14,072 nucleotides of DNA from a virus. The position numbers and the translations under genes are program-made. The notes under the pieces were generated by a model. It was not told where the DNA came from. It searched no databases and saw nothing but the letters and a program-made list of their open reading frames with translations. Of this stretch, positions 1 through 14,072 are shown one piece after another. The DNA lies in the IMG/VR virus record IMGVR_UViG_3300043446_004346, positions 1-14,072 of that record. One strand, given 5' to 3'. Each line of letters opens with the position of its first letter. Positions within the stretch are counted from its first letter, which is position 1.

Positions 1-127
1 GCGTCAGGTTCATATTTAATATAATAATAACCACCACCGTATCTATTAAACATTAAATAAATACCATCTGCCCTTTGTAGATACGAAAAAGGTCTGCCTA
101 CACTTGATCCTGACTGAAAAGTAAATA
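1..127. repeat. Terminal overlap, copy A (identical to 13946..14072); signature of a circular molecule
   Basis: Read directly: gcgtcaggttcatatttaat...ctgactgaaaagtaaata occurs at both ends with no mismatch. Offset 13945 nt. Confidence 0.95.
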
Positions 128-224
128 ATATTTTTCTAGGTTGTTCAGGTTTGTCAAATGCAGTCAATTGCTTTTTAGCAATCAAATTAACCTTAAGCAA
201 ATCACCAATGTTTATTTCAGGCAT
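1..224 (-). CDS. N-terminal part of a 132-aa ORF split by linearisation (MPEINIGDLLKVNLIAKKQLTAFDKPEQPRKILFTFQSGSSVGRPFSYLQRADGIYL...); continues at 13771..13945
   Basis: ATG at 224..222 lies 1 nt after the stop of the 226..921 ORF. The frame stays open to position 1 and joins the 13771..13998 track ORF once the 13945-nt offset is applied (399 nt in total). Confidence 0.7.
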   Translation of the reverse strand, partial: MPEINIGDLLKVNLIAKKQLTAFDKPEQPRKILFTFQSGSSVGRPFSYLQRADGIYLMFNRYGGGYYYIKYEPD

Positions 225-225
225 A

Positions 226-921
226 TTATTTCCTTAACATTTTAAGTAAGAAATTAAATTGCATTTTGTCATTTTCCGCCATTTCGCACAATAACAATAG
301 ATCATCCCCAAGTTGTTCATCACATTTTTTAAGTCTTTCAATTGCATTTGCAATTTTTTCATCATTGCTATCAGCTTCAACACCTGAAACGTGGGTAACT
401 TTTTGTTGTTGTTGCGGTGTAACTAAATTTGCTACTACATTCATAAGCATTTGTCTTACTGCAGGGTTACCCATTAAACCTGATAAAAGATTATTTTCGG
501 GTTCTTCTTCTTCCTCCTCATCTTCTTCCTCTAATTGCATTTGAAGTGCTGCAATTTGACTTTTAAGTGCAGTTATTTCATTTTGCATTTGTGGGTTATA
601 CATTCCAACTTGCTGCTGCATTAAACCATAATTTGATCTATTAAGTTGAAATGTGATTGTATTGTGTGCTTCTTTTTTCTTGCCTTTATCTCTTAATATG
701 ACAAGTAAATATGTGTTTGTGTTATCAGGGTTTGACATTACACTAGCCAGTGCGTCAGAAAGATGCTGCCTTCCTGTTATTTTATCATCACCATCATAAG
801 AAAACCTTCTGCAGGTTTCATCTATTTTATGTCCTGCATATACTGAATATGCAGCTTCATCATACTGATCATAATATGACAGTACACCTTCTGCGTCGTG
901 TAGTTCAGGTTTATAAGGCAT
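226..921 (-). CDS. Hypothetical acidic coiled-coil protein (231 aa), possible scaffolding or assembly factor
   Basis: Long ORF in the structural block. It has a heptad-like stretch NEITALKSQIAALQMQLEEEDEEEEEEPE, no TM segment and no enzyme motif I recognise. The function is a guess from position and composition. Confidence 0.7.
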   Translation of the reverse strand: MPYKPELHDAEGVLSYYDQYDEAAYSVYAGHKIDETCRRFSYDGDDKITGRQHLSDALASVMSNPDNTNTYLLVILRDKGKKKEAHNTITFQLNRSNYGLMQQQVGMYNPQMQNEITALKSQIAALQMQLEEEDEEEEEEPENNLLSGLMGNPAVRQMLMNVVANLVTPQQQQKVTHVSGVEADSNDEKIANAIERLKKCDEQLGDDLLLLCEMAENDKMQFNFLLKMLRK

Positions 922-938
922 ATATTATACATTTAAAA

Positions 939-956
939 GTGAAAGAAAAGTGATTA
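939..956 (-). promoter_or_regulatory. Conserved intergenic motif, copy 1 (plus-strand GTGAAAGAAAAGTGATTA; reads TAATCACTTTTCTTTCAC on the coding strand)
   Basis: 18-nt string identical to 3498..3515. It sits between the stop at 963 and the ATG at 921. Confidence 0.6.
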
Positions 957-962
957 ATCCTT

Positions 963-1388
963 TTAAGCATAATAAACACCAAAGCAAACACTATAGTTAC
1001 TTGCTGAAATACTACTGTATGCACTAGGTGTTAAAATGTATGACTTTGACCATACAATTTGCTGCCCTGCAAATGGAGTAATTGCAAATGCGTATGGATC
1101 AGCACTAGATGAATTTGAAGCAATTCTGTTAAGTTCTAGTACTGGTATTCGGTTTACACTTTCCTTGTCATTATAATAAAGTACCAAGTAAGTATTTTTC
1201 ATATTTGCTAGTGAAAGCAAAGGGTTACCACTTAAAATACTGTTTGTTAATACGTTGGGAGTATATGTAACTAGATTAAGCATTGATACAAAACGCAATT
1301 GCGGTTGATCTGCAAAATAAAATCTTGTACCTGTGCTGCTTTGTGGTACTATACACTCTATAAATTCATATTGATTAACCTTATTCAT
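963..1388 (-). CDS. Small beta-rich structural protein (141 aa); candidate single jelly-roll capsid or penton protein
   Basis: ORF directly downstream of the 222-aa capsid candidate. It has no TM and is rich in V/I/Y/T/N/S, with short alternating beta-like segments. The fold assignment is inference only. Confidence 0.65.
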   Translation of the reverse strand: MNKVNQYEFIECIVPQSSTGTRFYFADQPQLRFVSMLNLVTYTPNVLTNSILSGNPLLSLANMKNTYLVLYYNDKESVNRIPVLELNRIASNSSSADPYAFAITPFAGQQIVWSKSYILTPSAYSSISASNYSVCFGVYYA

Positions 1389-1460
1389 ATCGGTTTTTTA
1401 CAATTTTAAAAAATAGGGCTTCTATTTTTAACGTGCCATCGCCCATTGCAATACAATTTA

Positions 1461-2129
1461 TTAACGTACTGGAGTAACGTTTTGTGCCAAGATACCACGC
1501 ATAACCACAACAATTTTTGGTGCAGTTCCTGCCTGTAGTGTACCAATTGCTGCAGGAAGTTGAATAGTCAATTGATTATTCTTACTACCTACTAAAACAA
1601 TGTTTGGTTCTACTGGATAATATCCACTTTCAGTACCATCATTTTGATCAAGACCAGTGTTTGCAGTACCAGTGTAAATACCAGTTTGTGAAACACCTAT
1701 CCACAAATGACGATAAATATCCCATGAAGGCATGATCTGCCTGTTGTTTACAGTAAGTTGCAATTGACCATTGTAAAGGTTATACAATGCTGCAGATGCA
1801 CCAGCAGTACTGAAAACAGTTGCGTTTGGATATGTATAAAGTGGGAATGCAGTTGTAGTTGATGCTGCAGGTGCTGCAACAAAAATTCCAATTTGAGCAA
1901 CTACAAAAGCATCTTGCAAATTAAGCAAATTGTTTGTTACTGGTTGATAGTTATTTTGGTTGTCATTTACCAAAATGGGAATATGATATGAAGTTGTAGA
2001 AGTACTCATCAAAACTTCACTTCTAAGATAAGACTGGCTAAGAATAGCTTGATTAACGGAAAAACCTGCAGATTGTACAAGATTTTTTGCGTTATCAAAC
2101 ACTAACCTAGCATTCATTTGACTTGCCAT
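1461..2129 (-). CDS. Putative major capsid protein (222 aa, beta-rich, jelly-roll-like)
   Basis: It lies in the centre of the structural block and is flanked by the only sizeable intergenic spacers in that block. It has no TM and a beta-strand-rich composition (e.g. AFVVAQIGIFVAAP, LQLTVNNRQIMPSW, KIVVVMRGILAQN). No sequence family was recognised from memory. Confidence 0.6.
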   Translation of the reverse strand: MASQMNARLVFDNAKNLVQSAGFSVNQAILSQSYLRSEVLMSTSTTSYHIPILVNDNQNNYQPVTNNLLNLQDAFVVAQIGIFVAAPAASTTTAFPLYTYPNATVFSTAGASAALYNLYNGQLQLTVNNRQIMPSWDIYRHLWIGVSQTGIYTGTANTGLDQNDGTESGYYPVEPNIVLVGSKNNQLTIQLPAAIGTLQAGTAPKIVVVMRGILAQNVTPVR

Positions 2130-2164
2130 TTTCTTTTAGTTTATTTGTTTTAAAATTTTAAATA

Positions 2165-2587
2165 TTAATAATCTTCGTCCATTCCTGCCAAAACAGAAAG
2201 GTTATCAGGTTCATAACCTGCAACTACCGAAAGATCATCACCTGCCATAACTGAAACAGGAATTTCCATAGCTTGATCAATTGCACCTAGTACATTTGTT
2301 GCTTGTAGCAAACCAAGTCCACCTGCTGCAACCATTCCATCACCGATATTTTTACCAAATGATCCTTTAATGATGCTAGGGAAAAATGCACCAAGTGCAA
2401 TTACACCTGCTGACTTAATTTTTGCATCAAGATTTGGTAAAATCTTAGGTGAACTGGTGATCATTCTTGCTGCTGCTGCACCTACCACAAGTCCTGCTGC
2501 ATCCATCAAAAACGATTTTGAAATTTTTCCTACACTTCTTCTACGAGAACGGCGGTAAGATTTTGCCCTTTTTCTTCTTCTTGCCAT
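2165..2587 (-). CDS. Membrane protein with polyarginine N-terminus (MARRRKRAKSYRRSRRRS), Gly/Ala-rich TM core and acidic repeated C-terminus
   Basis: Hydrophobic segments GLVVGAAAARMI, AGVIALGAFFPSII and GMVAAGGLGLL. The C-terminal near-repeat is DDLSVVAG / DNLSVLAG. Confidence 0.7.
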   Translation of the reverse strand: MARRRKRAKSYRRSRRRSVGKISKSFLMDAAGLVVGAAAARMITSSPKILPNLDAKIKSAGVIALGAFFPSIIKGSFGKNIGDGMVAAGGLGLLQATNVLGAIDQAMEIPVSVMAGDDLSVVAGYEPDNLSVLAGMDEDY

Positions 2588-2631
2588 TTTTTTTAGTTTT
2601 TAATTGGTTTTGTGATAACTATATCAAGATT

Positions 2632-2886
2632 TTATTTATTATGAAATTTTCTCATAGCAGAAATGTTTTCTGCATAAAGTTTTAATTCCTTTTCAGATAC
2701 TTTTTTTAATTTAAAACTAGAATAACTTCCAATTATTCTAAATACTGCAGGTTTATAACTAACCTTAAAAGCATTAATACCTTCAATCAATGCTTCTTCA
2801 GTATCAGCAAAAAAATTCAGATCATCACGATATGGAAATTTAACTAAATATCCACCGTATTTTATGTTTACAACTATATTGTTCAT
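2632..2886 (-). CDS. Hypothetical protein (84 aa)
   Basis: ORF with a 4-nt overlap (2883..2886) with the upstream gene. No recognisable motif. Confidence 0.55.
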   Translation of the reverse strand: MNNIVVNIKYGGYLVKFPYRDDLNFFADTEEALIEGINAFKVSYKPAVFRIIGSYSSFKLKKVSEKELKLYAENISAMRKFHNK

Positions 2887-3206
2887 ACAAAAAATTTTAC
2901 TTTTCCTATTGATTTAAAACCACTTACTACTCTAATATTAACATTATGGCTTTTTGTGTCAGTGTGCATTTCACTTGATGACTTCTTTTTTCTAGCTTTT
3001 ACTTTTGTAGCTTTTACTGCACTTTTCTTTTTTACTTTACCAACACTAGCAACTTTCGATCCACTTCTTTTTTTGCTATATGATATTGCCCATGCTTGTT
3101 TTACTGCCTGTGCTTGTGTTAGCTTAGGGTTTTTCTTCCTTAATTTTTTGGCTTCCGCAACTACTGCTTTGAATTTTGCCCTAGCTGCTCGTTGTTTTGC
3201 AGTCAT
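2883..3206 (-). CDS. Lys-rich histone H1-like basic protein (107 aa), probable DNA-binding or condensing protein
   Basis: AKQRAARAKFKAVVAEAKKLRKKNPK...KVKKKSAVKATKVKARKKK. Very high K/A/R content and no TM. Confidence 0.7.
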   Translation of the reverse strand: MTAKQRAARAKFKAVVAEAKKLRKKNPKLTQAQAVKQAWAISYSKKRSGSKVASVGKVKKKSAVKATKVKARKKKSSSEMHTDTKSHNVNIRVVSGFKSIGKVKFFV

Positions 3207-3209
3207 TTT

Positions 3210-3491
3210 TTATTTTTTTAAAGTTTTTTTACACCAGTGTAACATTTCCTTTCCTCCCCACAATTGATAAGAAATATAACCACATTTAGACTGATCACCT
3301 ACATAAACTTTTGCTCTTTCTAAATATGAATATATTTTATTAACCATTTTTTCATTCAATCCTTTTTTGTTGATCAACATTCTAGCGGTTTTTACACCAG
3401 TACTGTTTTTACAACTTCCCTTTTCCATGTTTAATATAAGTCCTTCAATTGCGTTTTTTGTTGCCTTTACTGGGTAATTATAATACAACAT
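3210..3491 (-). CDS. Small conserved phage-type protein (93 aa) with an ...ARMLINKKGL...YLERA...YQLWGG...W signature
   Basis: ORF preceded by motif copy 2. From memory, the signature resembles a module seen at the N-terminus of head-maturation proteins of tailed phages. Not verified. Confidence 0.6.
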   Translation of the reverse strand: MLYYNYPVKATKNAIEGLILNMEKGSCKNSTGVKTARMLINKKGLNEKMVNKIYSYLERAKVYVGDQSKCGYISYQLWGGKEMLHWCKKTLKK

Positions 3492-3497
3492 ATAAAG

Positions 3498-3515
3498 GTG
3501 AAAGAAAAGTGATTA
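3498..3515 (-). promoter_or_regulatory. Conserved intergenic motif, copy 2 (GTGAAAGAAAAGTGATTA on plus)
   Basis: Identical to 939..956. It overlaps the stop codon of the 378-aa gene and ends 6 nt before the ATG at 3491. Confidence 0.6.
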
Positions 3516-4649
3516 TTTTTTTGCTATTAAATAAAGTGCAACTGCACCACCAACAATAAAAGGCAAATAGTTTTTCTTACCTTCTGCCTGATTAAATATT
3601 TTATCTACTTCACTTTGTTGCACCTGTTGTAATTTTTCCCCGCTTTCCAATTTTTTTTCAACTACATTTTTAACTTGTTTTGCAAGTACTCTTTTCCCAA
3701 CTTCCCCTACTTCCTTTACATCAATTCCAATTTTTCCTAGAAATTCTGCAACTTTTATAAGTATTGGTGCTGCAGTAACTGTAGCTGCTGCAGGTGCTGC
3801 TGCAACAACACCGATCTGTCCTTCGCTAGGAAATTCAATGTCATCACCAAGCAATCTCTTTTTTGCTGCACCTTGATTAACTTTTCTAAGAAGTTCATTT
3901 GCATCACCTCCTAAATTGTTCCACCAATCCACAGTAGCACTTGCCTTTGTGTCAAAAGCATTTTTTAACTTCGTTGCTAATCCCATAAAATTTAGTCCAA
4001 CTAGCAAAAGAAATGATCCCCTTGCAGGTGCTAAACTTATTCTTAATACTGTTTTTTTAACTGGTTTTGGTGCTGCAGCTTGTTTTGCTGCACCTATACC
4101 TGATACTTGATATAAAGGCATATTTGGCTTTTTATCTATTTTATGAAAATACGTTTTTCGTTCATTAAATCTGCTAAGTACTGGATCAACAAAATATTCA
4201 TTTCCGTTACGATCTTTTATTACTACAAAAACATGATGCGGAATTTCATCTAATAATTTATAACTAGCAAAACGAAAATTTAGATCATTATTGATCAATC
4301 CTTTTCTTTTTAAGCTATCCAGTACACCCATTGAAAACAAAGCATATCCTTTGCAATCAAATCCATCACTAGCAAGTGCAAGTAATGCACTAGGTGACAT
4401 GATCCGTTGCGACTGATCACTCTCTATTTTGTAACGGACATTTTGTTTAAGAAATTTGAAAACTTTCTTTGCAGTTTGAATGCCATCACCTGCGTAAAAA
4501 TCTTGACTAATTTTATCATATTCATTTTTATACTGGTTATGTGCTTTCAGCATTGCAGTCATAATATCAGGGACTTGTTGATCACGCACCAACAATTTAC
4601 GTTGTTTTTCAAATGGAGTAAGTCTGCCTAATAATGCAATGCGATCCAT
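3513..4649 (-). CDS. Papain-fold (transglutaminase-like) cysteine peptidase domain fused to C-terminal membrane anchors (378 aa)
   Basis: Cys-His-Asp pattern: GFDC99KGYALF, about 40 aa, then HH139VFVVIKDRNGNEYFVD155P, which matches the transglutaminase-core layout. TM-like segments LRISLAPARGSFLLLVGLNFMGL and NYLPFIVGGAVALYLIA. The ATG shares 1 nt with the upstream stop (TAATG). Confidence 0.75.
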   Translation of the reverse strand: MDRIALLGRLTPFEKQRKLLVRDQQVPDIMTAMLKAHNQYKNEYDKISQDFYAGDGIQTAKKVFKFLKQNVRYKIESDQSQRIMSPSALLALASDGFDCKGYALFSMGVLDSLKRKGLINNDLNFRFASYKLLDEIPHHVFVVIKDRNGNEYFVDPVLSRFNERKTYFHKIDKKPNMPLYQVSGIGAAKQAAAPKPVKKTVLRISLAPARGSFLLLVGLNFMGLATKLKNAFDTKASATVDWWNNLGGDANELLRKVNQGAAKKRLLGDDIEFPSEGQIGVVAAAPAAATVTAAPILIKVAEFLGKIGIDVKEVGEVGKRVLAKQVKNVVEKKLESGEKLQQVQQSEVDKIFNQAEGKKNYLPFIVGGAVALYLIAKK

Positions 4650-5083
4650 TAAAAAAGTTTTGATGAATATTCAAACGGAATTATCAAACCATCAATGTTT
4701 GTAGTTCCTTTAATCGTATATTTTGCACCTTTTGCAAATGCACCTTTTTCGGTTATTAATGACAATAAACCGATATTAGGTTTTGCAAATACACTCAAAT
4801 CGCTTTCACTTTTTGGTCGAATAGTTTGCACACCAAAACTTGCAAAATCAGCAACATATTTTCCGTTCACAAAAACTTCACCACTTATTGCGTTTATAGT
4901 TCCAGTAGTGTTTGTAGGGTTGATTACTTTGAAAATAATTTCTATTCGCTTTGAAATTCCACTTCCTGTTATGCGAATATTTTTAAAGGATAATTTTGTT
5001 TTGTCACCTAACTGCTTTTTACCATATAACCAGTATATGATGTAACCTGCAAACAGGTAAAAAAGCAAATTTTTGTTTTTCAA
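4649..5083 (-). CDS. N-terminally anchored LEA_2 / WHy-like beta-sandwich protein (144 aa), TTG start
   Basis: TM LLFYLFAGYIIYWLY followed by IEIIFKVINPTNTTGTINAISGEVFVNGKYVADF...YTIKGTTNIDGLIIPFEY, the typical LEA_2 pattern. The ORF has no ATG codon at all. The start codon at 5083..5081 is TTG. Confidence 0.65.
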   Translation of the reverse strand: MKNKNLLFYLFAGYIIYWLYGKKQLGDKTKLSFKNIRITGSGISKRIEIIFKVINPTNTTGTINAISGEVFVNGKYVADFASFGVQTIRPKSESDLSVFAKPNIGLLSLITEKGAFAKGAKYTIKGTTNIDGLIIPFEYSSKLF

Positions 5084-5100
5084 AATTTCTAACTTTTAAC

Positions 5101-5108
5101 CAAAACTA
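5101..5108 (-). promoter_or_regulatory. Candidate Bacteroidota -7 promoter box (TAGTTTTG = TAnnTTTG) for the late structural unit
   Basis: Exact match to the TAnnTTTG consensus, ending 17 nt upstream of the TTG start (5083). The nearest upstream TTTG is only 12 nt away, so the -33 element is poor. Confidence 0.35.
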
Positions 5109-5114
5109 TTGAAT

Positions 5115-5260
5115 ATTTTTCAAAAAAAAAAATATTAGGTCGGAAAAGTTGAAAAGAAGGTCAGTATCTAGGTTCACTTTCCCCTGTAGGGGGAAAGTGA
5201 CCTGCTGCCATCTTTCCAAGTGTTTTTTGACCTTACCAAAACTGACCTGACCTGTCCTTG
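5115..5260. promoter_or_regulatory. Origin-like or regulatory hub: A11 tract, GGTCR/TGACC iterons and a GC-topped hairpin
   Basis: A11 tract at 5122..5132. GGTCG at 5138 and GGTCA at 5159. TGACC at 5198, 5228, 5243 and 5248 (tgacctgacctg). Hairpin at 5171..5202. Confidence 0.5.
5171..5202. repeat. Inverted repeat or hairpin: TCACTTTCCCC (5174..5184), loop TGTAG, GGGGAAAGTGA (5190..5200); extends to GG/CC with one bulged T
   Basis: Perfect 11-bp stem read directly. Its arms contain the half-motif CACTTTC, which is related to the conserved intergenic motif. Confidence 0.8.
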
Positions 5261-5270
5261 TTTCATCTAA

Positions 5271-5290
5271 ATCACTTTTCTTTCACCTTT
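5271..5290 (+). promoter_or_regulatory. Conserved intergenic motif, copy 4, inverted orientation (ATCACTTTTCTTTCACCTTT on the plus strand)
   Basis: The 20-nt string equals the reverse complement of 3496..3515. It is the only copy that reads TCACTTTTCTTTCAC on the plus strand. Confidence 0.6.
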
Positions 5291-5291
5291 G

Positions 5292-5319
5292 ATAATAAAA
5301 AAAGGGCAAAATTGCCCTT
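5292..5319 (-). terminator. Intrinsic terminator of the early unit
   Basis: Stem AAGGGCA (5302..5308) / TGCCCTT (5313..5319). On the minus strand it is followed by TTTTTTTATT. It lies 29 nt downstream of the stop at 5348. Confidence 0.65.
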
Positions 5320-5347
5320 CTCTTGTTTTCCAGTGTTGATGCTAATA

Positions 5348-5539
5348 TCAAAAATCGTTTCTAAGGTACCTGCGGTGCGAAAATTTGCTGCTTTTTGCAA
5401 AATATAGGTTCATGTACCATGCACCCTCTTTTTCGGCAAATTTGGCAAAATTTTCAAGGTGTGAAATATTGCGGTATTTTCTAGGTCTTTTTTCCTTGTT
5501 AGGTTCAAAAAAGACAATTGCATTATAAATTTGTTTCAT
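5348..5539 (-). CDS. Hypothetical basic protein (63 aa)
   Basis: ORF bracketed by motif copy 3 upstream and a terminator downstream. No recognisable domain. Confidence 0.55.
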   Translation of the reverse strand: MKQIYNAIVFFEPNKEKRPRKYRNISHLENFAKFAEKEGAWYMNLYFAKSSKFSHRRYLRNDF

Positions 5540-5563
5540 TTTTAAATTTTTTCTAATTTTGAA

Positions 5564-5580
5564 TTGAAAGAAAAGTGGTT
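5564..5580 (-). promoter_or_regulatory. Conserved intergenic motif, copy 3 (degenerate: TTGAAAGAAAAGTGGTT on plus)
   Basis: The core TGAAAGAAAAGTG is shared with copies 1 and 2. It lies 25 nt upstream of the ATG at 5539. Confidence 0.45.
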
Positions 5581-5607
5581 TTTCGTTTTCGGAAGATCAT
5601 TTGTCGG

Positions 5608-5639
5608 TAGGCACTGGAAACAGTGCCTATTTTTGTTTG
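5608..5639 (+). terminator. Hairpin with plus-strand terminator geometry (TAGGCACTG-GAAA-CAGTGCCTA + TTTTTGTTTG), overlapping the ATPase stop codon
   Basis: 9-bp stem at 5608..5616 / 5621..5629 with a GAAA loop. The T-run follows only on the plus strand. On the minus strand it follows the TAG stop directly but lacks a U-tract. Confidence 0.4.
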
Positions 5640-6583: not shown

Positions 6584-6586
6584 TGG

Positions 6587-7581: not shown

Positions 7582-7583
7582 AA

Positions 7584-7703: not shown

Positions 7704-7780
7704 TACATAAAATTATCTGCAAAACATATTGCTAAGGATAGCAAAAATAAGATCAGGACTTGTTTTTGTGTCTTTGTCAT
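7703..7780 (-). CDS. Hydrophobic micro-protein, 25 aa (MTKTQKQVLILFLLSLAICFADNFM), not in the ORF track
   Basis: Hand-translated. It is the first ATG after the candidate early promoter, and its stop overlaps the next ATG by 1 nt. Confidence 0.35.
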   Translation of the reverse strand: MTKTQKQVLILFLLSLAICFADNFM

Positions 7781-7816
7781 GTGGTTTTTGTTTTAGTTAA
7801 AAATCATTTGTCATGT

Positions 7817-7846
7817 CAATATTAAGATATTTTCCACATTTCCAAA
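7817..7846 (-). promoter_or_regulatory. Candidate Bacteroidota-type promoter of the early unit (TTTG, 18 nt, TAATATTG)
   Basis: On the minus strand: TTTG (7846..7843), an 18-nt spacer, then TAATATTG (7824..7817), one mismatch to TAnnTTTG. It lies just downstream of the late terminator. Confidence 0.4.
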
Positions 7847-7849
7847 AAA

Positions 7850-7882
7850 AAATATAAAAAAAGGGATCGTTGAAACGATCCC
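7850..7882 (-). terminator. Intrinsic terminator of the late structural and lysis unit
   Basis: Stem GGGATCGT (7863..7870) / ACGATCCC (7875..7882) with loop TGAA. On the minus strand it is followed by TTTTTTTATATTTTTTTTT. It lies 26 nt after the lysozyme stop. Confidence 0.75.
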
Positions 7883-7908
7883 CGCCCTATTCTCTCTGAA
7901 AATCAAAC

Positions 7909-8412
7909 CTATTTGAGAAATAATTCCTTTTCTAGCTGCCTTCTTTTAGTCAGTCCTGCACTTATTTTGCCGTTTATCTTATTCCACCTTAAAAACTGAT
8001 CAGCAACCTCTGATTTTGGCTTATTTTGGTTTAATAACCTAAGTAGTGTACTGCTTTGAAATGCACCTAATCCAATGTTATAAGCTAAACTGGTTAGTGC
8101 AGCTAATTGGTTAGCATTTATAGGTACTTTAATTAACTTACCTAGTGCGTATTGTCTTTTCTCAATATCCGTTTTTAGCCATCTTTCTGCAGTCGGTTTA
8201 TCAATTGTATCACCTTCTTTTATTGGTTTATTGGTGTCAGGGTTTATTGTAGTACCATAACCAATTGTCCAAATACCTGCGGTGTCAGGGTATGCCTTTA
8301 ATCTTTCGCCTTCAAAAACTTTTATAATATCAAATGCTTTCACCTTCTTTGCAGATAAGAGTAAAAAAATAACAATTGCAGCTATTATAATCCATTTCTT
8401 ATTGGACATCAC
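7909..8412 (-). CDS. GH24 (T4-type) lysozyme with N-terminal signal anchor (167 aa)
   Basis: FE34GERLKAYPD43TAGIWT49IGYG aligns residue for residue with the T4 lysozyme E11/D20/T26 motif. The N-terminus WIIIAAIVIFLLLSA is hydrophobic. Confidence 0.9.
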   Translation of the reverse strand: MMSNKKWIIIAAIVIFLLLSAKKVKAFDIIKVFEGERLKAYPDTAGIWTIGYGTTINPDTNKPIKEGDTIDKPTAERWLKTDIEKRQYALGKLIKVPINANQLAALTSLAYNIGLGAFQSSTLLRLLNQNKPKSEVADQFLRWNKINGKISAGLTKRRQLEKELFLK

Positions 8413-8560
8413 TGTCTTTTGCTAGTAATCCTGTAATAAGTATCCCAATACCTGAAACTACCTTTACCCAATCTTTTTGTGCAACACCATCACCAATTAG
8501 GGGTAATCCTGCAACTGATCCGAAAAAGCTAGTTTTAATGTTTTTTAGTATTCTTTTCAT
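8399..8560 (-). CDS. Holin-like small membrane protein, 53 aa (MKRILKNIKTSFFGSVAGLPLIGDGVAQKDWVKVVSGIGILITGLLAKDSDVQ), not in the ORF track
   Basis: Hand-translated. It overlaps the lysozyme start by 14 nt. The pattern KxxKT(S/T)xxG...G..LAKD resembles small proteins I recall next to endolysins in Bacteroidota phages. Not verified. Confidence 0.55.
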   Translation of the reverse strand: MKRILKNIKTSFFGSVAGLPLIGDGVAQKDWVKVVSGIGILITGLLAKDSDVQ

Positions 8561-8780
8561 CTTTTAATTTTTTATATTTTAAATAATTCAATGAAATAGT
8601 AACAATACAACTAACTGTAGATGCACTGGCAAATATGATCTTTGTCAGCTCGTCAATTTCTTGTAATCCAATTGCGGACAATAAAACGGTGCAGATTGTT
8701 GATACTACTGCAGGATCAGTTTGTTGCGTCATTGCTAGTTTCATCTTTTTGAAATTTTGCTGCAATAATGTTATAAGCAT
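8535..8780 (-). CDS. Two-TM class II holin-like protein (81 aa as tracked; probably 65-69 aa from Met at 8732 or 8744)
   Basis: TM1 AVVSTICTVLLSAIGL, TM2 IIFASASTVSCIVTISLNYL, basic tail KYKKLKDEKNTKKH. The upstream 54-aa ORF ends at 8716, which favours an internal start. Confidence 0.6.
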   Translation of the reverse strand: MLITLLQQNFKKMKLAMTQQTDPAVVSTICTVLLSAIGLQEIDELTKIIFASASTVSCIVTISLNYLKYKKLKDEKNTKKH

Positions 8781-8880
8781 TTATAACAGTTGCAGATTGA
8801 TCTAAAGTTGCAAAAACACCTTTACTTGTTGATAAGTCTAGTGCTGCTTTTAAAACTTCTAATGCTTGTTTTTCGTTCAT
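8716..8880 (-). CDS. Helical small protein, 54 aa (MNEKQALEVLKAALDLSTSKGVFATLDQSATVINAYNIIAAKFQKDETSNDATN), not in the ORF track
   Basis: Hand-translated. It fills an otherwise empty 111-nt gap and starts 11 nt after the stop at 8892. Confidence 0.5.
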   Translation of the reverse strand: MNEKQALEVLKAALDLSTSKGVFATLDQSATVINAYNIIAAKFQKDETSNDATN

Positions 8881-8891
8881 TTGTTCTTGTT

Positions 8892-9161
8892 TTATTGGTT
8901 AATAATTGTTAATCCTAAAGTAGTTGCAATATAATTATATGCGTAATCATTTGTTGTATAGTTATTATATTCAGGTTCACCCATTGTTACAGTACCAGTA
9001 GCTAGACTTTCACCCAATTGCCCTTGATTATCTGCACAAAGATTGTAACTAAATGATGCAAAACTTTCAAAGTTATCATAGTTTCCGTAACATGATAGCC
9101 ATACTGCTTCTGTTACTACACCATTATTCCAAATTTGTACTGGTTCAATTTGCTTTGCCAT
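8892..9161 (-). CDS. Hypothetical protein (89 aa) downstream of the spike gene
   Basis: ORF that overlaps the spike 3' end by 17 nt. It is Y/N-rich with no TM. It may be a spike accessory protein, judged by position only. Confidence 0.55.
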   Translation of the reverse strand: MAKQIEPVQIWNNGVVTEAVWLSCYGNYDNFESFASFSYNLCADNQGQLGESLATGTVTMGEPEYNNYTTNDYAYNYIATTLGLTIINQ

Positions 9162-12100
9162 ATAATTGTTTTAATTCTTCTATTTGTGCTTGTTGTTCTT
9201 GAATGGCTTTTATCAGCATTGGCACAAATACTGAATATTTTACTGATTTAGTAGTTGTTTCTAATTGATTTCCTTTTTTATCTATGTCAAAAGTTTCTTC
9301 AATCATTGAAGGAAATATTTCTTCTAATTCCTGCGCAATAACACCTATTTGTTTTATTTCACTACCAATTAAATTATAATTTCTAATTTTTACTTTCAAT
9401 AATTTATCAAGTTTAGGTGTTGCATCAATTATATTCTCTTTTAATTTTATATCAGATAAAGAACCATAACTATTATTTGCATTTTGGATATTACCATTAC
9501 CTATAATTTTGATATTAGTTGTACTACCAATATCACTATAACCAATAAAATGATTCCATCCAGTACCTGAAGCTGTATAAGACAAACTTGTTATTACACT
9601 TCCAGTAAAACTTGCAGTTGATTTTTCAGCATAATAAATAGATTCAGTAGTAGATGCGCCTTTGCTATATACTAATGCAGTTGGCGAACCACTCCCTATT
9701 CCGACATTGCCGCCCGAAGATATTCGGATGCGTTCGGTATCTGCAGTTGCAAATATTAATGGATAACTTCCGATTACATCTATTACTCCATATTCTCCAG
9801 CTGAATAAGAAGGACCTGTGTATCCTATAAGCATTTGTCTTGCTGCACTGTTCTTGAAATATAAAAGAGAAGTTGCAGTACTTACTGTATTTTCAATAGT
9901 TAATGTAGCATTTGCACCTGTCACACTTGAACTGAAGCTAGTTGAACCAGAATTATTTATTTGTAATAATGCTGCGTTATATGCCTGATTAACTATTCTT
10001 AATGGAGTTCCTGCCCCCAATTGAATATCGTTTACTGAACCTGCATAATTTAAATTAATAGCTAAAGGATAATTAGTAACAATTGTTGCATTCGACGTAA
10101 TATTTGAACTAAAAGTAGATGCTCCAGTTGCATCAATTAATAACCTCCTACCAAATGTACCACCTGACTTTGTATATAATTCAAAACCTCCTGATGTATT
10201 AAGATTAAATCCAAATGCCTTATCACCTGCAAAGTTTGCAAATTGTGCCTGTAATCCACTTCCGTAAGTATCTGACAAAGTATTTGATACCATGTAAGAA
10301 ACTGCTCTTTGTCCTGCACCTGTTGCATCAATCTTAAATGATCTACCTGCAATTAAACTTTCACCTGTTGCACCTTCTGAAGGGTTATTTGCTAGTACAC
10401 TTGCGTTGAATGATGCCTGACCATTGTTTTCCAATGTCATTGAAAGTGTAGCTGATCCACCTGCGGAAGTGTAAAATTTTAATCTTCCGTTTCCACTGTT
10501 AGCACCATCTAAGGTTGCAGCTATATAAGGGTTAGCATTTCCTAAACCAAAATTGATTGTTGTAATTGCTGCACCTGTTGAATAGTAATTATTTGTTAAT
10601 TGTAATGCAGTAAAAGACGCTGCATTACCTGTAAATATTGCATTGAGTCCATTCAATACACCAGTTAAAGTTGCTGCACCAACTACATCAAGTGCAACAC
10701 TAGGTGTTTTACCAATTCCCACATTTCCATAAAATCTTGCAGTTTTATCGTTTCTAGTCCAAAAAATGTCTGCACCGTTTGTATCTGCAACATTAAAGGC
10801 ATAATCACTAGCACCAGTTGAACTACCTTTTACATATAATGTTACGTTTGTAACTGGAGTATTATCCCCAAATACTGCCGATCCATTCTTTGCAATGCTA
10901 AATCTATCCACCCAAGATTGTGATACTGCAGATGCTGAACTTTGAAATCTTGCTAAATACAATGTAGTATCTGCGTCAGTTGATCTGACAAGTAAACCTT
11001 GTGAACTATCTTCTATATTTGTAACTGATAAGGCATAACCTGCCAAAGTTCCGCTAAATGCTGCAGTTGTACCATTTAATGCACCAGTTAATGTACCACC
11101 TGTTAAAGGCAAATATCCACTTAATGCACTGCCATAATTAGGTATATTTAATGTATTTCCTACAAATGTTGCAGCACCACTGCTACCAGTTGTTGTGAGT
11201 GATATTGTTGCCTGTTTGCTATTTAATTGTGTTTGTATAGCACTTGTAACACCTTTTACATAACTTATTTCAGTTAATGAAGGGTAAGTAGCGGTAGTTA
11301 GTGATCCTATTGTTGATCCAGTTGCGGTAAAATATGCTAATTCATTTATAGTACCTGTACCAGTTACAGGGTTAGTTAATGCTCCCTGATATTGCGGTAT
11401 ATTTAATGTATTTCCTACAAATGTTGCAGCACCACTCGTACCAGTTGTTGTAAGTGATATTGCATTTTGTTTGCTATTAAATGTACTCCAATCACTTGAT
11501 GAAAGTTTACCTGTATTTGTTGCAGATGCTACAGGTAAGTTAAATGTATGTGTACCACTGGAAGTTGAAATATTAAAATTAGTACCTGATGTACCAGTAA
11601 CTAAAAATTGTACTTGTTCAGTTGCACTATTTATTGCAGTAATTCCAGTACTAAATGTAGTTGCAATTTGTGCTAATCTTGTTGATTGGGTATAAAATGT
11701 TATTGTTCTACCATCATGTGTTACATAAAACCTTATTGCTAATCTATCAGTAAGTGTTAATACAGTTGCAGGTACTGCAATTGATGTATAATAAAGATCA
11801 ATAGAAGTACCACCAGTAATTACTTCGGGGTTTGATGAACTACTGGCAATTAATGAAAATGTAGTTCCATCGTATTTGTATAATTCAACATAAAAACTAG
11901 GGTTACCACCTGTTGAATTACTACTAAAATATGCTTGTATATTCCAGTTACCTGCAGGTATATTTAAAAGTGCAGGATCACCTGCATTTGTAATAAATTG
12001 TGCTATATATCCGTTAGCACTTATTGTAAAGTTTGCTGCAGTTCCAGTATTTGCAGTTTTACTCATTTGATAATAAGTATTTCCGCCAAAACTTCCCTGA

Positions 12101-12468
12101 CTTGTACCACCGTTCAAATAATAATTAACAGATGATCCACCTCCTGTATTTGGAAAATCTGCTAAAGTACCATCACCCCTAATATATTGTGAAACTGTAC
12201 CTGCACCAGTAACATTTAATGATCCACTACCTGTTATTGGTGAATTTGCTACATTAAATGCACTAGGCATTGATAAACCTACGGAAGTAACTGTACCTAC
12301 ATTACCTATTAAATCCCATGTTGAACCAGTATCCCTGTACCAAAGTTTTGTGTCAGTTGATACAAATAACCTGCCTGTTATACCTGCTGCAGGTCTATTT
12401 GCAAATACATCCGAATAAAACATCGGTGTACCAAACTGGTTCAATACTGAATAATCAACAACAATCAT
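9145..12468 (-). CDS. Receptor-binding spike or fibre (1107 aa) with C-terminal S74 intramolecular-chaperone autoproteolytic domain
   Basis: The C-terminus LS|SDIKLKENI...IGVIAQELEEIFPSMI...VKYSVFVPMLIKAIQEQQAQIEEL matches the Peptidase_S74 pattern (9148..9456). The body is long and G/S/T/N-rich and beta-helix-like. An 85-aa internal repeat carries SLTTTGxSGAATFVGNTLNIPxY. Confidence 0.85.
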   Translation of the reverse strand: MIVVDYSVLNQFGTPMFYSDVFANRPAAGITGRLFVSTDTKLWYRDTGSTWDLIGNVGTVTSVGLSMPSAFNVANSPITGSGSLNVTGAGTVSQYIRGDGTLADFPNTGGGSSVNYYLNGGTSQGSFGGNTYYQMSKTANTGTAANFTISANGYIAQFITNAGDPALLNIPAGNWNIQAYFSSNSTGGNPSFYVELYKYDGTTFSLIASSSSNPEVITGGTSIDLYYTSIAVPATVLTLTDRLAIRFYVTHDGRTITFYTQSTRLAQIATTFSTGITAINSATEQVQFLVTGTSGTNFNISTSSGTHTFNLPVASATNTGKLSSSDWSTFNSKQNAISLTTTGTSGAATFVGNTLNIPQYQGALTNPVTGTGTINELAYFTATGSTIGSLTTATYPSLTEISYVKGVTSAIQTQLNSKQATISLTTTGSSGAATFVGNTLNIPNYGSALSGYLPLTGGTLTGALNGTTAAFSGTLAGYALSVTNIEDSSQGLLVRSTDADTTLYLARFQSSASAVSQSWVDRFSIAKNGSAVFGDNTPVTNVTLYVKGSSTGASDYAFNVADTNGADIFWTRNDKTARFYGNVGIGKTPSVALDVVGAATLTGVLNGLNAIFTGNAASFTALQLTNNYYSTGAAITTINFGLGNANPYIAATLDGANSGNGRLKFYTSAGGSATLSMTLENNGQASFNASVLANNPSEGATGESLIAGRSFKIDATGAGQRAVSYMVSNTLSDTYGSGLQAQFANFAGDKAFGFNLNTSGGFELYTKSGGTFGRRLLIDATGASTFSSNITSNATIVTNYPLAINLNYAGSVNDIQLGAGTPLRIVNQAYNAALLQINNSGSTSFSSSVTGANATLTIENTVSTATSLLYFKNSAARQMLIGYTGPSYSAGEYGVIDVIGSYPLIFATADTERIRISSGGNVGIGSGSPTALVYSKGASTTESIYYAEKSTASFTGSVITSLSYTASGTGWNHFIGYSDIGSTTNIKIIGNGNIQNANNSYGSLSDIKLKENIIDATPKLDKLLKVKIRNYNLIGSEIKQIGVIAQELEEIFPSMIEETFDIDKKGNQLETTTKSVKYSVFVPMLIKAIQEQQAQIEELKQLYGKAN
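11141..11462. repeat. Two 67-nt near-identical direct repeats (11141..11207 and 11396..11462), period 255 nt, inside the spike gene
   Basis: ggtatatttaatgtatttcctacaaatgttgcagcaccact(g/c)(c/g)taccagttgttgt(g/a)agtgatattg, read directly. It encodes the duplicated 85-aa module. Confidence 0.85.
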
Positions 12469-12866
12469 TTATATAACTTTCTTATAATAGTAAGTTTGTT
12501 TCCTGTGTTTACCAAATTGGTAAAAATAATATCGTATTGTGTAGTATCTATTTCACCAATATTTCCTTGAATTCTCAAAGATTGATTAGGTACTAACAAA
12601 ATACCTTCTACAGTTAAATTAGTAGTTCCAGTATTTATAAACGAAATTTCGTTACAATCACTGCTAACTTTTTGTGAAGTATAAAAGTCTTTTACTTCAA
12701 TATAATATTTTTGAAATGCTCTGCCAGTTGATGCACTTGTTGTATTAATTCGTGCATATTCCTGCCTCCATTGCTCTTGCTTTGTTTTTCCATAATCAGG
12801 AAAACTAGCTTTAATTTTTTCCTGCTTATCCATAACCTGTACTTTCAAATGCTGAACTTTTGCCAT
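12465..12866 (-). CDS. Beta-rich protein (133 aa) directly upstream of the spike; candidate vertex, penton or spike-adaptor protein
   Basis: ATGA overlap with the spike gene. The C-terminal half is beta-like (ISFINTGTTNLTVEGILLVPNQSLRIQGNIGEIDTTQYDIIF). The function is inferred from position only. Confidence 0.6.
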   Translation of the reverse strand: MAKVQHLKVQVMDKQEKIKASFPDYGKTKQEQWRQEYARINTTSASTGRAFQKYYIEVKDFYTSQKVSSDCNEISFINTGTTNLTVEGILLVPNQSLRIQGNIGEIDTTQYDIIFTNLVNTGNKLTIIRKLYK

Positions 12867-12877
12867 AGTATTTTATT

Positions 12878-13774
12878 TTATCCGTAAATAGGAAATTCCC
12901 CAACTTTTTTTCCTTTTGCTGCAATTGGTAGTGGTTTTTTAACTACTGATGCTGCCTTTACAACTGGTTTTGCTGCAACTGGTATTGGTTTTGGTGCAAT
13001 AAAAGTTGATGCTGCCTTTGCAACAGGTTTTGGTGCAACTATATTAACAGGTGCAATTGCTTTTGGTACTGGTTTTGCAACTGTTTTTGGTGCAACTGCT
13101 TTTGTTATTGATGCAGGTACACTAGGTTTTTTTGCAACTGGTAGTGGTTTTGCTGCTACTGGTGCAGTTTTTTTTACTACTGGTGCAGGTTTCTTTGCAA
13201 CTGGCACTGGTTTTTTTGTTGCAACTGCTTTTGTTATTAATGCAGGTACACTAGGTTTTTTTGCAACTGGTAGTGGTTTTGCTGCTACTGGTGCATGTTT
13301 TTTTATTACTGGTGCAGGTTTTTTTGCAACTGGTGATACTTCCTTTTTTAATATTTTTTGCGGTTCTGCCTTTTTAATTGTAGGCGGTACAATATTAACT
13401 GGTTGTTGTCCAGTTGAAAGTTTTTTAATTGCTTGTTCAATTGGTGCAACTGGTTTTGTTGCTTTTGCTTTTTTTCTTTTTACCTTTTGACCACTAGGAA
13501 GGGTTACAGTTTCAACTTCTTCCGATACTGGACTGATCATTTGTTCAATAACTTGTTGTGGTGCTTTTTCAACAACTTTTGGTGCAATATAATCAACTTG
13601 TGCCTGTTGTACTGGTGCAGTTGTTTCTGCGACTTCTGTTAATTTTTTAAATTCACCTTCAGTTAATTTTTCAGGTGTAGGTACAATAACTTTACCTTTT
13701 GGCTTTTTCTTAAAAGCAAATAATGCAAGTGCTGCACCACCAAGCAATAATAAAGGCAAATAATTTTTTTTCAT
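12878..13774 (-). CDS. N-terminally anchored Pro/Lys/Ala/Val-rich repeat protein (298 aa)
   Basis: TM LPLLLLGGAALALFAF followed by KKPAPV / AAKPLPVAKKPSVP periodic repeats, including a 43-aa tandem duplication. It is polycationic and extended, similar to TonB spacers or AlgP / H1 tails. Confidence 0.75.
   Translation of the reverse strand: MKKNYLPLLLLGGAALALFAFKKKPKGKVIVPTPEKLTEGEFKKLTEVAETTAPVQQAQVDYIAPKVVEKAPQQVIEQMISPVSEEVETVTLPSGQKVKRKKAKATKPVAPIEQAIKKLSTGQQPVNIVPPTIKKAEPQKILKKEVSPVAKKPAPVIKKHAPVAAKPLPVAKKPSVPALITKAVATKKPVPVAKKPAPVVKKTAPVAAKPLPVAKKPSVPASITKAVAPKTVAKPVPKAIAPVNIVAPKPVAKAASTFIAPKPIPVAAKPVVKAASVVKKPLPIAAKGKKVGEFPIYG
13092..13333. repeat. Tandem direct repeat, period 129 nt (13092..13204 and 13221..13333 are near-identical)
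   Basis: gcaactgcttttgttatt(g/a)atgcaggtacactaggtttttttgcaactggtagtggttttgctgctactggtgca... read directly in both copies. Confidence 0.9.
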
Positions 13775-14072
13775 TTTCTTTTTATTAATTCTTTAATAAC
13801 AATAATCCCAAAAATATAGATCAATACTATTTTACCGTATTTATCAAAATAGTATGAAAATGCACCTTTCTGCTCTATTAATTGTTTTTCAGTTTCCTGC
13901 TTTTGTTTTTCTGCAATTATTTTAATATCACTGGTAAATTTGAATGCGTCAGGTTCATATTTAATATAATAATAACCACCACCGTATCTATTAAACATTA
14001 AATAAATACCATCTGCCCTTTGTAGATACGAAAAAGGTCTGCCTACACTTGATCCTGACTGAAAAGTAAATA
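13771..14072 (-). CDS. C-terminal part of the junction-spanning 132-aa ORF with a C-terminal TM anchor (IVLIYIFGIIVI); the track shows only 13771..13998
   Basis: The frame stays open upstream of the tracked Met (..FTFQSGSSVGRPFSYLQRADGIYLMFNRYGGGYYY..) to the window end and continues at 128..224. Confidence 0.7.
   Translation of the reverse strand, partial: FTFQSGSSVGRPFSYLQRADGIYLMFNRYGGGYYYIKYEPDAFKFTSDIKIIAEKQKQETEKQLIEQKGAFSYYFDKYGKIVLIYIFGIIVIKELIKRK
13946..14072. repeat. Terminal overlap, copy B (identical to 1..127)
   Basis: Same 127-nt string as 1..127. An ORF reads through the junction in frame only if the molecule is circularised. Confidence 0.95.

Follow-up and report, generated by a model that had tools for sequence, protein, structure and literature searches.

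The window analyzed here, the whole of IMG/VR virus record IMGVR_UViG_3300043446_004346 at its full length of 14,072 nucleotides, carries the genes of a candidate tailless phage. A self-comparison of the window showed that positions 1-127 and 13946-14072 form an exact direct repeat of 127 nt, a length that matches the assembler k-mer size, and JGI contig Ga0485268_001147 (locus L088) proved to be a rotation of the window that describes the same 13,945-bp circle with its break inside the spike gene. Given the identity of the ends and the existence of a copy that is broken elsewhere, the window represents the whole of a genome that is circular, or circularly permuted, and 13,945 bp long.

Organization of the genome

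All of the real genes and all long open reading frames (ORFs) of the window lie on the minus strand, and its GC content is 29-37%. We counted 26 genes, compared with 25 calls by JGI; what appeared as a 75-aa ORF at 13771-13998 of the linear window is a piece of a 132-aa gene cut by the break point. An earlier reading of this DNA (the original prediction) had placed about 30 ORFs on one strand, of which the single strand was borne out and the number was too high. The ATGA-style junctions that it described occur as several 4-nt overlaps (for example 13771/13774, 12465/12468, 7134/7137 and 2883/2886), and the largest ORFs after the spike are, as it had stated, those of 378, 318 and 298 aa. Scans of the window for tRNA genes and Rfam families returned zero matches.

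The 26 co-oriented genes are held in two transcription units (Table 1). The early unit runs from about position 7750 to 5300 and consists of small ORFs, a DnaB/RepA-like helicase and a basic 63-aa protein, with a terminator at its end and an iteron-rich intergenic region next to it. The late unit runs from 5108 through the window junction to 7862. It begins with proteins bearing transmembrane (TM) segments, a transglutaminase-like cysteine peptidase, two very basic proteins and the proteins of 222 and 141 aa, and it continues with an acidic protein, a vertex-adaptor candidate, a spike capped by an S74 domain, holin-like ORFs, a signal-anchored GH24 endolysin and a strong terminator. Three of the six TAnnTTTG matches on the coding strand are intergenic, with an intergenic share of the sequence of only 13%, and sigma-70-type promoter matches showed no enrichment.

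Table 1. Features of the window, listed by position
Feature	Position	Strand	Basis and remarks
End overlap	1..127	.	Identical to 13946-14072; marks a circular or circularly permuted genome
231-aa acidic protein	226..921	-	pI 4.7, poly-Glu tract; kept in 71 loci; only weak PHROG/Pfam matches
141-aa beta-rich protein	963..1388	-	AlphaFold2 pLDDT 71; single beta-sandwich model; median identity 77%, 75 loci
222-aa candidate major capsid protein	1461..2129	-	Single jelly-roll-like beta-sandwich model
140-aa protein	2165..2587	-	Arg-rich N-terminus, Gly/Ala-rich hydrophobic segments, acidic tail; directly upstream of the capsid gene
Lys-rich 107-aa protein	2883..3206	-	pI 11.6 (composition); kept in 60 loci, length variable
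378-aa transglutaminase-like (papain-fold) cysteine peptidase	3513..4649	-	Hydrophobic central and C-terminal TM-like segments
144-aa protein	4649..5083	-	Hydrophobic N-terminus, LEA_2/WHy-like beta-sandwich; LEA_2 E 4e-4; kept in 63 loci
TAGTTTTG box	5101..5108	-	T-run before it; head of late (morphogenesis and lysis) unit; putative promoter
Candidate origin/regulatory region	5150..5320	-	Terminator hairpin 5302-5319 and T-run; inverted 21-nt motif 5270-5290; five AGGTCA iterons 5158-5253; hairpin 5175-5199
Basic 63-aa protein	5348..5539	-	pI 10.1; between helicase and iteron region; in 55 loci and distant L084, L085, L090, L091
DnaB/RepA-like (AAA_25) helicase, 318 aa	5627..6583	-	Walker A GLPKQGKT; apparent C-terminal HTH-like DNA-binding region, by eye only
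Small early ORFs, 67, 93, 75, 90, 79 aa	6587..7581	-	Function unassigned; kept in 10-53 relatives; 90-aa ORF Zn-ribbon-like
TATTTTTG box (Bacteroidota -7-type TAnnTTTG)	7742..7749	-	Intergenic, coding strand; upstream of early/replication unit; putative promoter
Intrinsic terminator closing the late unit	7862..7883	-	9-bp GC-rich stem, then TTTTTTT; 26 nt past endolysin stop codon
GH24 endolysin	7909..8412	-	N-terminal signal-anchor (SAR-like) TM segment; Phage_lysozyme 1e-41 (Pfam), phrog_7 1e-53
Small lysis-region ORFs, 54, 81/69, 53 aa	8399..8880	-	81-aa: two TM (holin-like); 53-aa: one TM (hydropathy); kept in 58-59 loci
Spike/fibre, 1107 aa	9145..12468	-	N-terminal 55-85 aa kept family-wide, middle variable, C-terminal Peptidase_S74 chaperone at 9307-9456
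133-aa protein	12465..12866	-	Overlaps spike start; conserved C-terminal core of ~65 aa; in L084, L085, L087, L090, L091
298-aa protein	12878..13774	-	N-terminal TM anchor; Lys/Pro/Ala-rich 7-aa (21-nt) repeat tail; pI 10.4
132-aa junction-spanning gene, 3' part	13771..14072, upstream continuation 128-224	-	C-terminal TM; circular translation and JGI gene call

When every ORF was compared with Pfam and PHROGs, matches were confined to the endolysin, the spike, the helicase and, weakly, transglutaminase and LEA_2 domains. The functions recognised in the original prediction held up. Its RecA-fold ATPase matches AAA_25 in 16 of 16 relatives, its GH24 lysozyme has the strong Pfam and PHROG endolysin matches listed in Table 1 and lies beside ORFs with holin-like TM segments, and its spike ends in a Peptidase_S74 domain (residues 1005-1054, E 4.7e-10 in Pfam). 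For the papain-fold peptidase the domain match is weak in the window's own 378-aa protein and solid across relatives, 14 of 16 of which match DUF553 (best 9e-9) and 10 of 16 Transglut_core, with further matches to Tox-PLDMTX and with C99, H139 and D155 invariant. The claim of at least eight TM-bearing ORFs in the structural block stood in part: a hydropathy scan and inspection found TM-like segments in 6-8 ORFs overall, three of these being lysis proteins and about five (132, 298, 144, 378 and 140 aa) belonging to the morphogenesis block.

The absence of tailed-phage genes noted in that prediction was also found here, since no ORF matched a terminase, portal, tail-tube, tape-measure or HK97 protein in Pfam or PHROGs, and terminase, portal and HK97 capsid were not found at E values up to 0.05 (Pfam) or 0.01 (PHROGs). 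PDB sequences likewise gave no match to a terminase, portal, tail or HK97 capsid protein. That the window is a minimal tailed phage, its HK97 capsid, portal and terminase genes diverged beyond detection, is close to excluded. The best PHROG matches of the spike are annotated as tail fibre proteins, as such a phage might lead one to expect, but no terminase, portal or HK97 protein appeared at these permissive thresholds, the three ORFs of at least 298 aa beyond the spike are the helicase, the transglutaminase-like membrane protein and a low-complexity repeat protein, and the capsid candidates model as beta-sandwiches and not as HK97 folds.

Candidate capsid proteins and replication genes

AlphaFold2 modeled the 222-aa protein with a helix at the N-terminus and, after it, a sandwich of some 7-8 strands (pLDDT 67, pTM 0.68). 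Viral jelly-roll capsid proteins dominate the list of Foldseek matches of this model in the PDB, including capsid chains of PBCV-1 and Singapore grouper iridovirus (SGIV) and the capsid protein of SPV1, whose chain 6oj0_A had the highest PDB probability (0.98) and ranked eighth by E value (5e-3). Against BFVD the best match had an E value of 5e-5 and a probability of 1.00, with further capsid proteins next. The adjacent 141-aa protein was likewise modeled as a single sandwich, and an hhalign comparison of profiles found no homology between the two. Together with the 140-aa protein they are the most conserved proteins of the family, with median identities of 70-77%, and the distal spike is variable, the pattern usual for shell proteins versus receptor-binding proteins. 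On the interpretation best supported here, the 222-aa protein would be the major capsid protein (MCP), with a single jelly-roll. The 141-aa protein would then be a vertex or second shell protein (it is a candidate for a second capsid or penton protein), and the 133-aa protein may be another.

Across all six frames of the window the 318-aa protein was the single one with a genuine Walker A (P-loop) motif, and inspection for Walker A motifs in these frames found no packaging ATPase. The AAA_25 match of the 318-aa protein is weak in the window (E 1e-5) and solid among relatives (6e-9 at best), and the protein also matches a PHROG primase/helicase family (5e-8) and DnaB-like PHROGs; FtsK_SpoIIIE appeared as one weak match (E 0.005) in one of the 16 relatives. 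Relatives are annotated as 'DNA primase/helicase' in Flavobacterium podophages, as a hypothetical protein in an Olleya phage, and as 'AAA family ATPase' or 'bifunctional primase/helicase' on plasmids of Bacteroides, Phocaeicola, Parabacteroides and Prevotella, and in the human-gut element MT836017 the homologue adjoins a primase gene. Profiles of the helicase and of the 378-aa protein gave nothing meaningful against PDB sequences. Because AAA_25 is found in 16 of 16 relatives and the primase/helicase relatives occur in replication contexts, the sole ATPase of the genome belongs with the replicative DnaB/RepA-like helicases rather than with packaging ATPases of the FtsK/HerA kind.

Downstream of the helicase and 63-aa genes lies an intergenic region of 264 nt, also with a T-run, that includes the origin-like region of Table 1. 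Five of the six AGGTCA hexamers of the window fall inside 96 nt of this region, its hairpin at 5175-5199 is perfect over 10 bp, and clusters of GGTCA/TGACC with a hairpin occupy the same intergenic position in about 30 relatives. The region is a candidate iteron-type origin, and the position of a DnaB-like helicase gene beside an iteron cluster would thus favor theta-type replication of a double-stranded DNA (dsDNA) genome.

The original prediction had likened the virus to PRD1, PM2 and FLiP, and as a family assignment this analogy was not upheld, since neither a double jelly-roll nor a packaging ATPase was found and since the structure models gave single sandwiches for both the 222- and the 141-aa protein. 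A double jelly-roll in the capsid candidate is very unlikely because the protein is only 222 aa long and its model has one sandwich; the smallest double jelly-roll protein known to us, P2 of PM2, has 269 aa. Searches of Pfam and PHROGs for a double jelly-roll capsid, an HUH Rep and a microvirus F protein gave no match. The Corticoviridae and Autolykiviridae (Vinavirales; PM2, NO16) and the Tectiviridae (PRD1) resemble the virus described here in being tailless, in genomes of 10-15 kb, in vertex spikes, in many small membrane proteins and in a lysis cassette, and theirs is the lifestyle that the original prediction had in mind. They differ from it in possessing their own double jelly-roll capsid and an FtsK/HerA-type (A32-like) packaging ATPase, neither of which was found in the window, and in replicating by a rolling-circle Rep or a protein-primed polymerase, whereas the window has a DnaB-like helicase and iterons.

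The virus might still be of the PRD1/PM2 type (Bamfordvirae) if its double jelly-roll and packaging ATPase were present and too diverged for recognition. The genome size, circularity, vertex spike, many TM proteins and lysis cassette are PM2-like, the double jelly-roll of FLiP is likewise undetectable by sequence (PMC5894146), and there is the one FtsK_SpoIIIE match. We give this explanation a small chance: the capsid candidate has 222 aa (about 210-290 in the family) and a one-sandwich model, no other beta-rich ORF is long enough, the capsid proteins of PM2, PRD1 and FLiP are absent among the top 50 Foldseek matches of the 222-aa model, and the ATPase is of the AAA_25 kind in all 16 relatives.

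A tailless single-stranded DNA (ssDNA) phage with a lifestyle like that of FLiP and PhiCjT23 would account for the lack of a packaging ATPase, for the placement of all genes on one strand and for the Arg-rich protein. The window has one coding strand with a strong AT skew, the 140-aa protein has an Arg-rich N-terminus, a packaging ATPase is lacking in FLiP and in the 'Odin' group, so that small tailless viruses can do without one, and Bacteroidetes have been proposed to harbor ssDNA phages as large as 17 kb (PMC5894146). An ssDNA genome is nevertheless unlikely, as no HUH rolling-circle Rep was found in Pfam or PHROGs, a DnaB-like helicase with an iteron cluster is typical of theta-type dsDNA replicons, and no protein of the window resembles those of microviruses or of the FLiP group. 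The Finnlakeviridae (the Flavobacterium phages FLiP and PhiCjT23) are tailless, lipid-containing phages of Bacteroidota with a small circular genome and no packaging ATPase (PMC5894146; PMC9719478). The virus of the window shares the small circular genome and the missing packaging ATPase with them, and would share the tailless state, the lipid and probably the host phylum. FLiP differs in its ssDNA genome, its HUH rolling-circle Rep and its double jelly-roll capsid protein; the window has no Rep and no similarity to FLiP-group proteins. Microviridae and other ssDNA phages have an HUH Rep and an F-like single-jelly-roll capsid protein of 400-550 aa, neither of which was matched, and the 13.9 kb of the window amount to 2-3 times a microvirus genome.

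The nearest architectural analogues appear to be single-jelly-roll viruses, without a sequence relationship. Among the Helvetiavirae (Matsushitaviridae, Sphaerolipoviridae and Simuloviridae), Thermus phage P23-77 is likewise tailless with a small circular genome (17 kb, dsDNA). Its small beta-barrel capsid genes stand side by side after the gene of a small membrane protein, a neighborhood similar to that in the window, and the likeness extends to several small membrane proteins, vertex spikes and virion-associated lytic enzymes. P23-77 differs in having a packaging ATPase gene just upstream of the capsid genes, where the window has none. The two MCPs of Helvetiavirae are vertical single jelly-rolls encoded by adjacent genes, and the adjacent jelly-roll-like models of 222 and 141 aa are not detectably related to each other or, by profile, to VP16 and VP17 of P23-77; the hosts of Helvetiavirae are thermophiles and haloarchaea, whereas the family of the window is aquatic and probably infects Bacteroidota. 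SPV1 (Sulfolobus polyhedral virus 1, Portogloboviridae; 6oj0), the highest-probability PDB fold match of the 222-aa model and the top match of the 141-aa model, has single-jelly-roll capsid proteins, an internal membrane and a circular dsDNA genome that a basic protein condenses, and is not known to have a packaging ATPase. The window resembles it in lacking a packaging ATPase and in encoding basic proteins (one of pI 11.6, one with an Arg-rich N-terminus). It differs in that SPV1 has an archaeal hyperthermophilic host and a genome of about 20 kb, the fold match is weak (TM 0.38-0.45; E 5e-3 and 7e-2), and PDB sequence searches with the 222-aa family found no similarity to SPV1.

Family, host and proposed biology

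The window is not a singleton; judged by the searches that follow, it is a member of a large, so far undescribed aquatic family. In a collection of 5.8 billion proteins the 222-aa protein has 1,523 homologues, all unnamed, on contigs whose maximum sizes cluster at 12-13.6 kb, with an identity of about 70% among the best 120 of the 1,523; the 141-aa protein has 187 homologues, and one cluster member of the 222-aa family comes from Tara Oceans. Overall, the contigs of the 222-aa homologues are syntenic circles of roughly 11.5-13.6 kb. Among 1.84 billion cluster representatives a 222-aa profile matched 933 clusters at 50% identity with E values up to 1e-3 (528 at 1e-10), and nearly all members of the family are 210-290 aa long. 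A scan of IMG/VR yielded 80 loci that share nearly every gene of the window. K-mer-sized end repeats in 19 of these 80 define circles of 11.7-13.6 kb, and 21 relatives in all carry them.

The late block, taken as the TM/LEA_2-like, transglutaminase-like, basic, 140-aa, 222-aa, 141-aa, acidic, adaptor and spike genes, is syntenic on a circle of about 11.5-14 kb in the window, in the 80 IMG/VR loci, in L003, L084, L085, L090 and L091, and in part in L087. L084 keeps the gene order with a 222-aa protein that is 49% identical, L085 keeps it at 54% GC, and L090 and L091 are circular, with 39-43% GC and the whole late-gene order. The most distant relative found, L087 (NZQM01000196.1, positions 1-11770), has 28% identity in the capsid candidate, two beta-rich ORFs after the capsid gene, and a different early module with a 311-aa protein without family match; its Parvibaculum label, that of a metagenome-assembled genome (MAG), is probably a binning artefact.

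A whole-genome megablast and tblastn searches with the 222- and 378-aa proteins gave no match in 50,697 phage records, and no cultured or classified relative was found in INPHARED (to August 2025), PHROGs v4, Pfam or the PDB. A distant-relative scan with P0402 found nothing, and a literature search found no description of the family, although one outside the literature covered remains possible. The original prediction had called the virus a tailless new lineage with no close described relative, and both parts agree with these negative searches and with the lack of tailed-phage hallmark genes. What is new, as far as the sequences indicate, is the family, its size and its synteny; the kind, tailless icosahedral phages with jelly-roll capsids, is known, and the candidate capsid protein matches nothing known by sequence.

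Among 185,579 species genomes (GTDB) the family was represented solely by four small contigs, each taken whole into a MAG bin, and no integrated copies were found; Pfam and PHROGs searches of the window found no integrase, partition or mobilisation genes. These results bear on the possibility that the element is a plasmid, or else a phage satellite using the capsid of a helper, in which case the 222-aa protein would not be a capsid protein. The helicase and iterons are plasmid-like, helicase homologues are carried by Bacteroidota plasmids and integrative elements, and the capsid fold matches are weak. We regard this as quite improbable in view of the element's own S74 spike, its full holin-endolysin cassette, its long and strictly conserved late operon and a genome size held within 11.5-13.9 kb over more than 20 circular relatives, besides the missing mobility genes and integrated copies. 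The replication modules of Bacteroidota plasmids and integrative elements encode helicases 25-32% identical to the 318-aa protein; those elements lack virion and lysis modules and have genes for integrase, ParA/ParB and methylase, so that the helicase is all they have in common with the window. Two human-faecal records named 'Bacteriophage sp.' (MT836017.1 and MT836458.1, L001 and L002; 13.5-13.8 kb) were rejected as relatives, as they share only the helicase. With genes for an integrase, ParA, ParB, a primase and a DarB-like methylase/helicase, MT836017.1 has the look of an integrative or plasmid-like element of Bacteroidota and not of a phage. The 'Charybdis' elements were also set aside, being unrelated 4.6-kb archaeal elements.

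A Shine-Dalgarno-like motif precedes the start in 0 of 22 window genes (ATG-start ORFs of at least 50 aa) and in 0-1 of the roughly 13-27 genes of each of 22 relatives, the relative of 54% GC included. Bacteroidota characteristically have almost no Shine-Dalgarno sequences. Helicase homologues occur in 18 PLSDB plasmid records, every one of them from Bacteroidota, and the only cultured phages with matches to the helicase infect Flavobacteriaceae (Flavobacterium, Olleya). Relatives of the endolysin are uninformative on the host, as they come mostly from phages of Proteobacteria and other phyla, not Bacteroidota. Because of the missing Shine-Dalgarno sequences, the distribution of helicase homologues and the -7-type boxes, the host likely belongs to the Bacteroidota, the evidence for this being indirect. 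The original prediction of such a host is plausible on the same grounds: no motif in 22 genes, TAnnTTTG boxes at the head of both units, and helicase homologues only on plasmids and phages of Bacteroidota.

The explanation that we consider probable is that the window is the genome of an uncultivated, lytic, tailless icosahedral phage from a large, undescribed aquatic family with genomes of about 11.5-14 kb, whose host is most likely a member of the Bacteroidota. In such a phage the 222-aa protein would be the single-jelly-roll MCP, and the 141-aa protein, the 133-aa protein or both would build or occupy the vertices. The spike, folded through its self-cleaving S74 chaperone, would be anchored by its conserved N-terminus and recognise the host with its variable distal part. 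TM proteins would populate an internal lipid membrane, which is suggested by the TM-bearing small proteins of the structural block, the one line of evidence compatible with it. Since there is no packaging ATPase and the 107-, 140- and 298-aa proteins are basic, the DNA is probably condensed by Lys- and Arg-rich proteins and enclosed while the particle assembles, instead of being pumped into it. Replication would be of the theta type from the iteron origin, by the phage helicase and host enzymes; the membrane-anchored peptidase may help in crossing the cell wall at entry, and exit would be by holin and endolysin.

Several observations weigh against this reading. The models are of moderate confidence (pLDDT 67 and 71) and come from shallow alignments. 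The PDB fold matches of the 222-aa protein are weak (E 1.6e-3 or worse, TM 0.24-0.45), those to capsid folds overall having E values of about 1e-3 to 5e-5 and TM scores of 0.24-0.46, and the 141-aa model had no significant Foldseek match, its top one being SPV1 6oj0_A at E 0.07. The 222-aa family found nothing among PDB sequences at E values up to 10 (single-sequence, shallow-profile and diverse-profile searches), 114 of its diverse homologues gave zero matches to PHROGs, and hhalign placed the probability for capsid-candidate profiles against P23-77 VP16/VP17 below 1%. As to the host, one relative has 54% GC, the family-wide intergenic enrichment of TAnnTTTG is modest, and MAG bins tag relatives as 'Proteobacteria' or 'Parvibaculum', though binning is unreliable for a viral contig of 8-12 kb. 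Finally, a dsDNA genome cannot be told from an ssDNA one by reading the sequence, and the membrane, the capsid role and the mode of packaging are all inferred for a family known from genes alone.

That the family constitutes a previously unrecognised, globally distributed, membrane-containing phage lineage of mesophilic Bacteroidota, with a single-jelly-roll capsid and no packaging ATPase, is a possibility we put forward tentatively and with some doubt. If true, the family would either be the bacterial counterpart of the single-jelly-roll viruses of archaea and thermophiles (Helvetiavirae, Portogloboviridae) or have acquired its icosahedral capsid independently; a new taxon of family or order rank would be the least it warrants, and there would be a bearing on the origin of double jelly-rolls from single ones. 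A single-jelly-roll capsid around a membrane, built without an ATPase motor, would extend this architecture from extremophile hosts to common mesophilic bacteria and offer a tractable system for ATPase-independent genome encapsidation and for the transition from single to double jelly-rolls. Tailless phages are badly under-sampled, and marker surveys detect only those with a recognisable double jelly-roll capsid or packaging ATPase. The window carries neither marker, yet its capsid candidate defines more than 900 clusters at 50% identity in public metagenomes. A sizeable share of aquatic phage diversity, probably infecting Bacteroidota, may thus escape current annotation and taxonomy, and the 222-aa family could become a hallmark profile for virus detection.

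Other putative virion genes, and early, spike and lysis genes

The remaining proteins of the morphogenesis block were given roles from their features and neighborhoods. The 144-aa protein is a candidate virion membrane protein; its positional counterpart in L087, just upstream of the transglutaminase-like gene, has a LEA_2 match (0.003) and no BLASTP match to the 144-aa protein. The 378-aa protein is proposed to be a membrane-anchored virion enzyme for entry or maturation, and its L087 counterpart is divided, with the peptidase and the membrane parts separate. A role as DNA-condensing core protein is proposed for the 107-aa protein, and one in linking DNA to membrane or capsid for the 140-aa protein, which has a median identity of 76% over 79 loci and is also found in L084, L085, L087, L090 and L091. 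The 231-aa acidic protein is a candidate scaffolding or assembly protein, for which the only candidate counterpart in distant L087 is a 247-aa protein in the corresponding position, not matched by BLASTP and resembling it at the C-terminus by eye. The 133-aa protein is a candidate vertex or spike-adaptor protein. The 298-aa gene contains 21-nt repeats at about 13063-13354, encoding tandem 7-aa units of Lys/Pro/Ala/Val, with a 129-nt duplication at 95% identity, and only the N-terminal 45-56 residues of its product are kept, in 7 loci. This protein, which resembles a histone-H1-like tail on a membrane anchor, is proposed to be a membrane-anchored DNA-binding protein.

Apart from a weak Zn_ribbon match of the 90-aa ORF, the small early ORFs had no family matches in Pfam or PHROGs; they are probably regulators or replication accessory proteins. 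The 90-aa Zn-ribbon-like and 79-aa ORFs (6587-6953, minus strand) lie in different frames and overlap by 146 nt, with translated matches in 45-53 relatives, and this arrangement could reflect a true gene overlap, a wrongly placed start codon or a site of frameshifting. The position and charge of the 63-aa protein make it a candidate initiator or regulator. A 21-nt motif, AATCACTTTTCTTTCACCTTT on the coding strand, occurs at 935-955 and 3494-3514, inverted inside the origin-like region at 5270-5290, and as a variant at 5565-5578 (4 matches where 0.4 were expected). It stands 2-10 nt ahead of the ATG of the 93-aa and 231-aa genes, and the variant stands ahead of the 63-aa gene. Its exact 13-nt core, CACTTTTCTTTCA, is present in only 2 of the 87 fetched loci, and the motif could be a regulatory or translational operator site.

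The small lysis-region ORFs had no family matches in Pfam or PHROGs, and the 81-aa and 53-aa ORFs would be holin-like from their features and position. The endolysin is about 49% identical to R-type endolysins. The C-terminal third of the spike matches PHROG tail-fibre families (1e-23), its C-terminus is 49% identical to cyanopodovirus fibre chaperones, and relatives align to it only at the N-terminus. In L090 (10858-12221) and L091 (857-1483) the GH24 endolysin is replaced by unrelated genes with weak GH108-like and phosphatase-like matches, and the spikes of these two loci are only 465-522 aa long, which indicates modular exchange of lysis and receptor-binding genes. The spike shaft of the window contains a 107-nt direct repeat with 84% identity (11121-11227 and 11376-11482), duplicating '...SLTTTG(T/S)SGAATFVGNTLNIP...', and this indicates modular repeat growth of the fibre.

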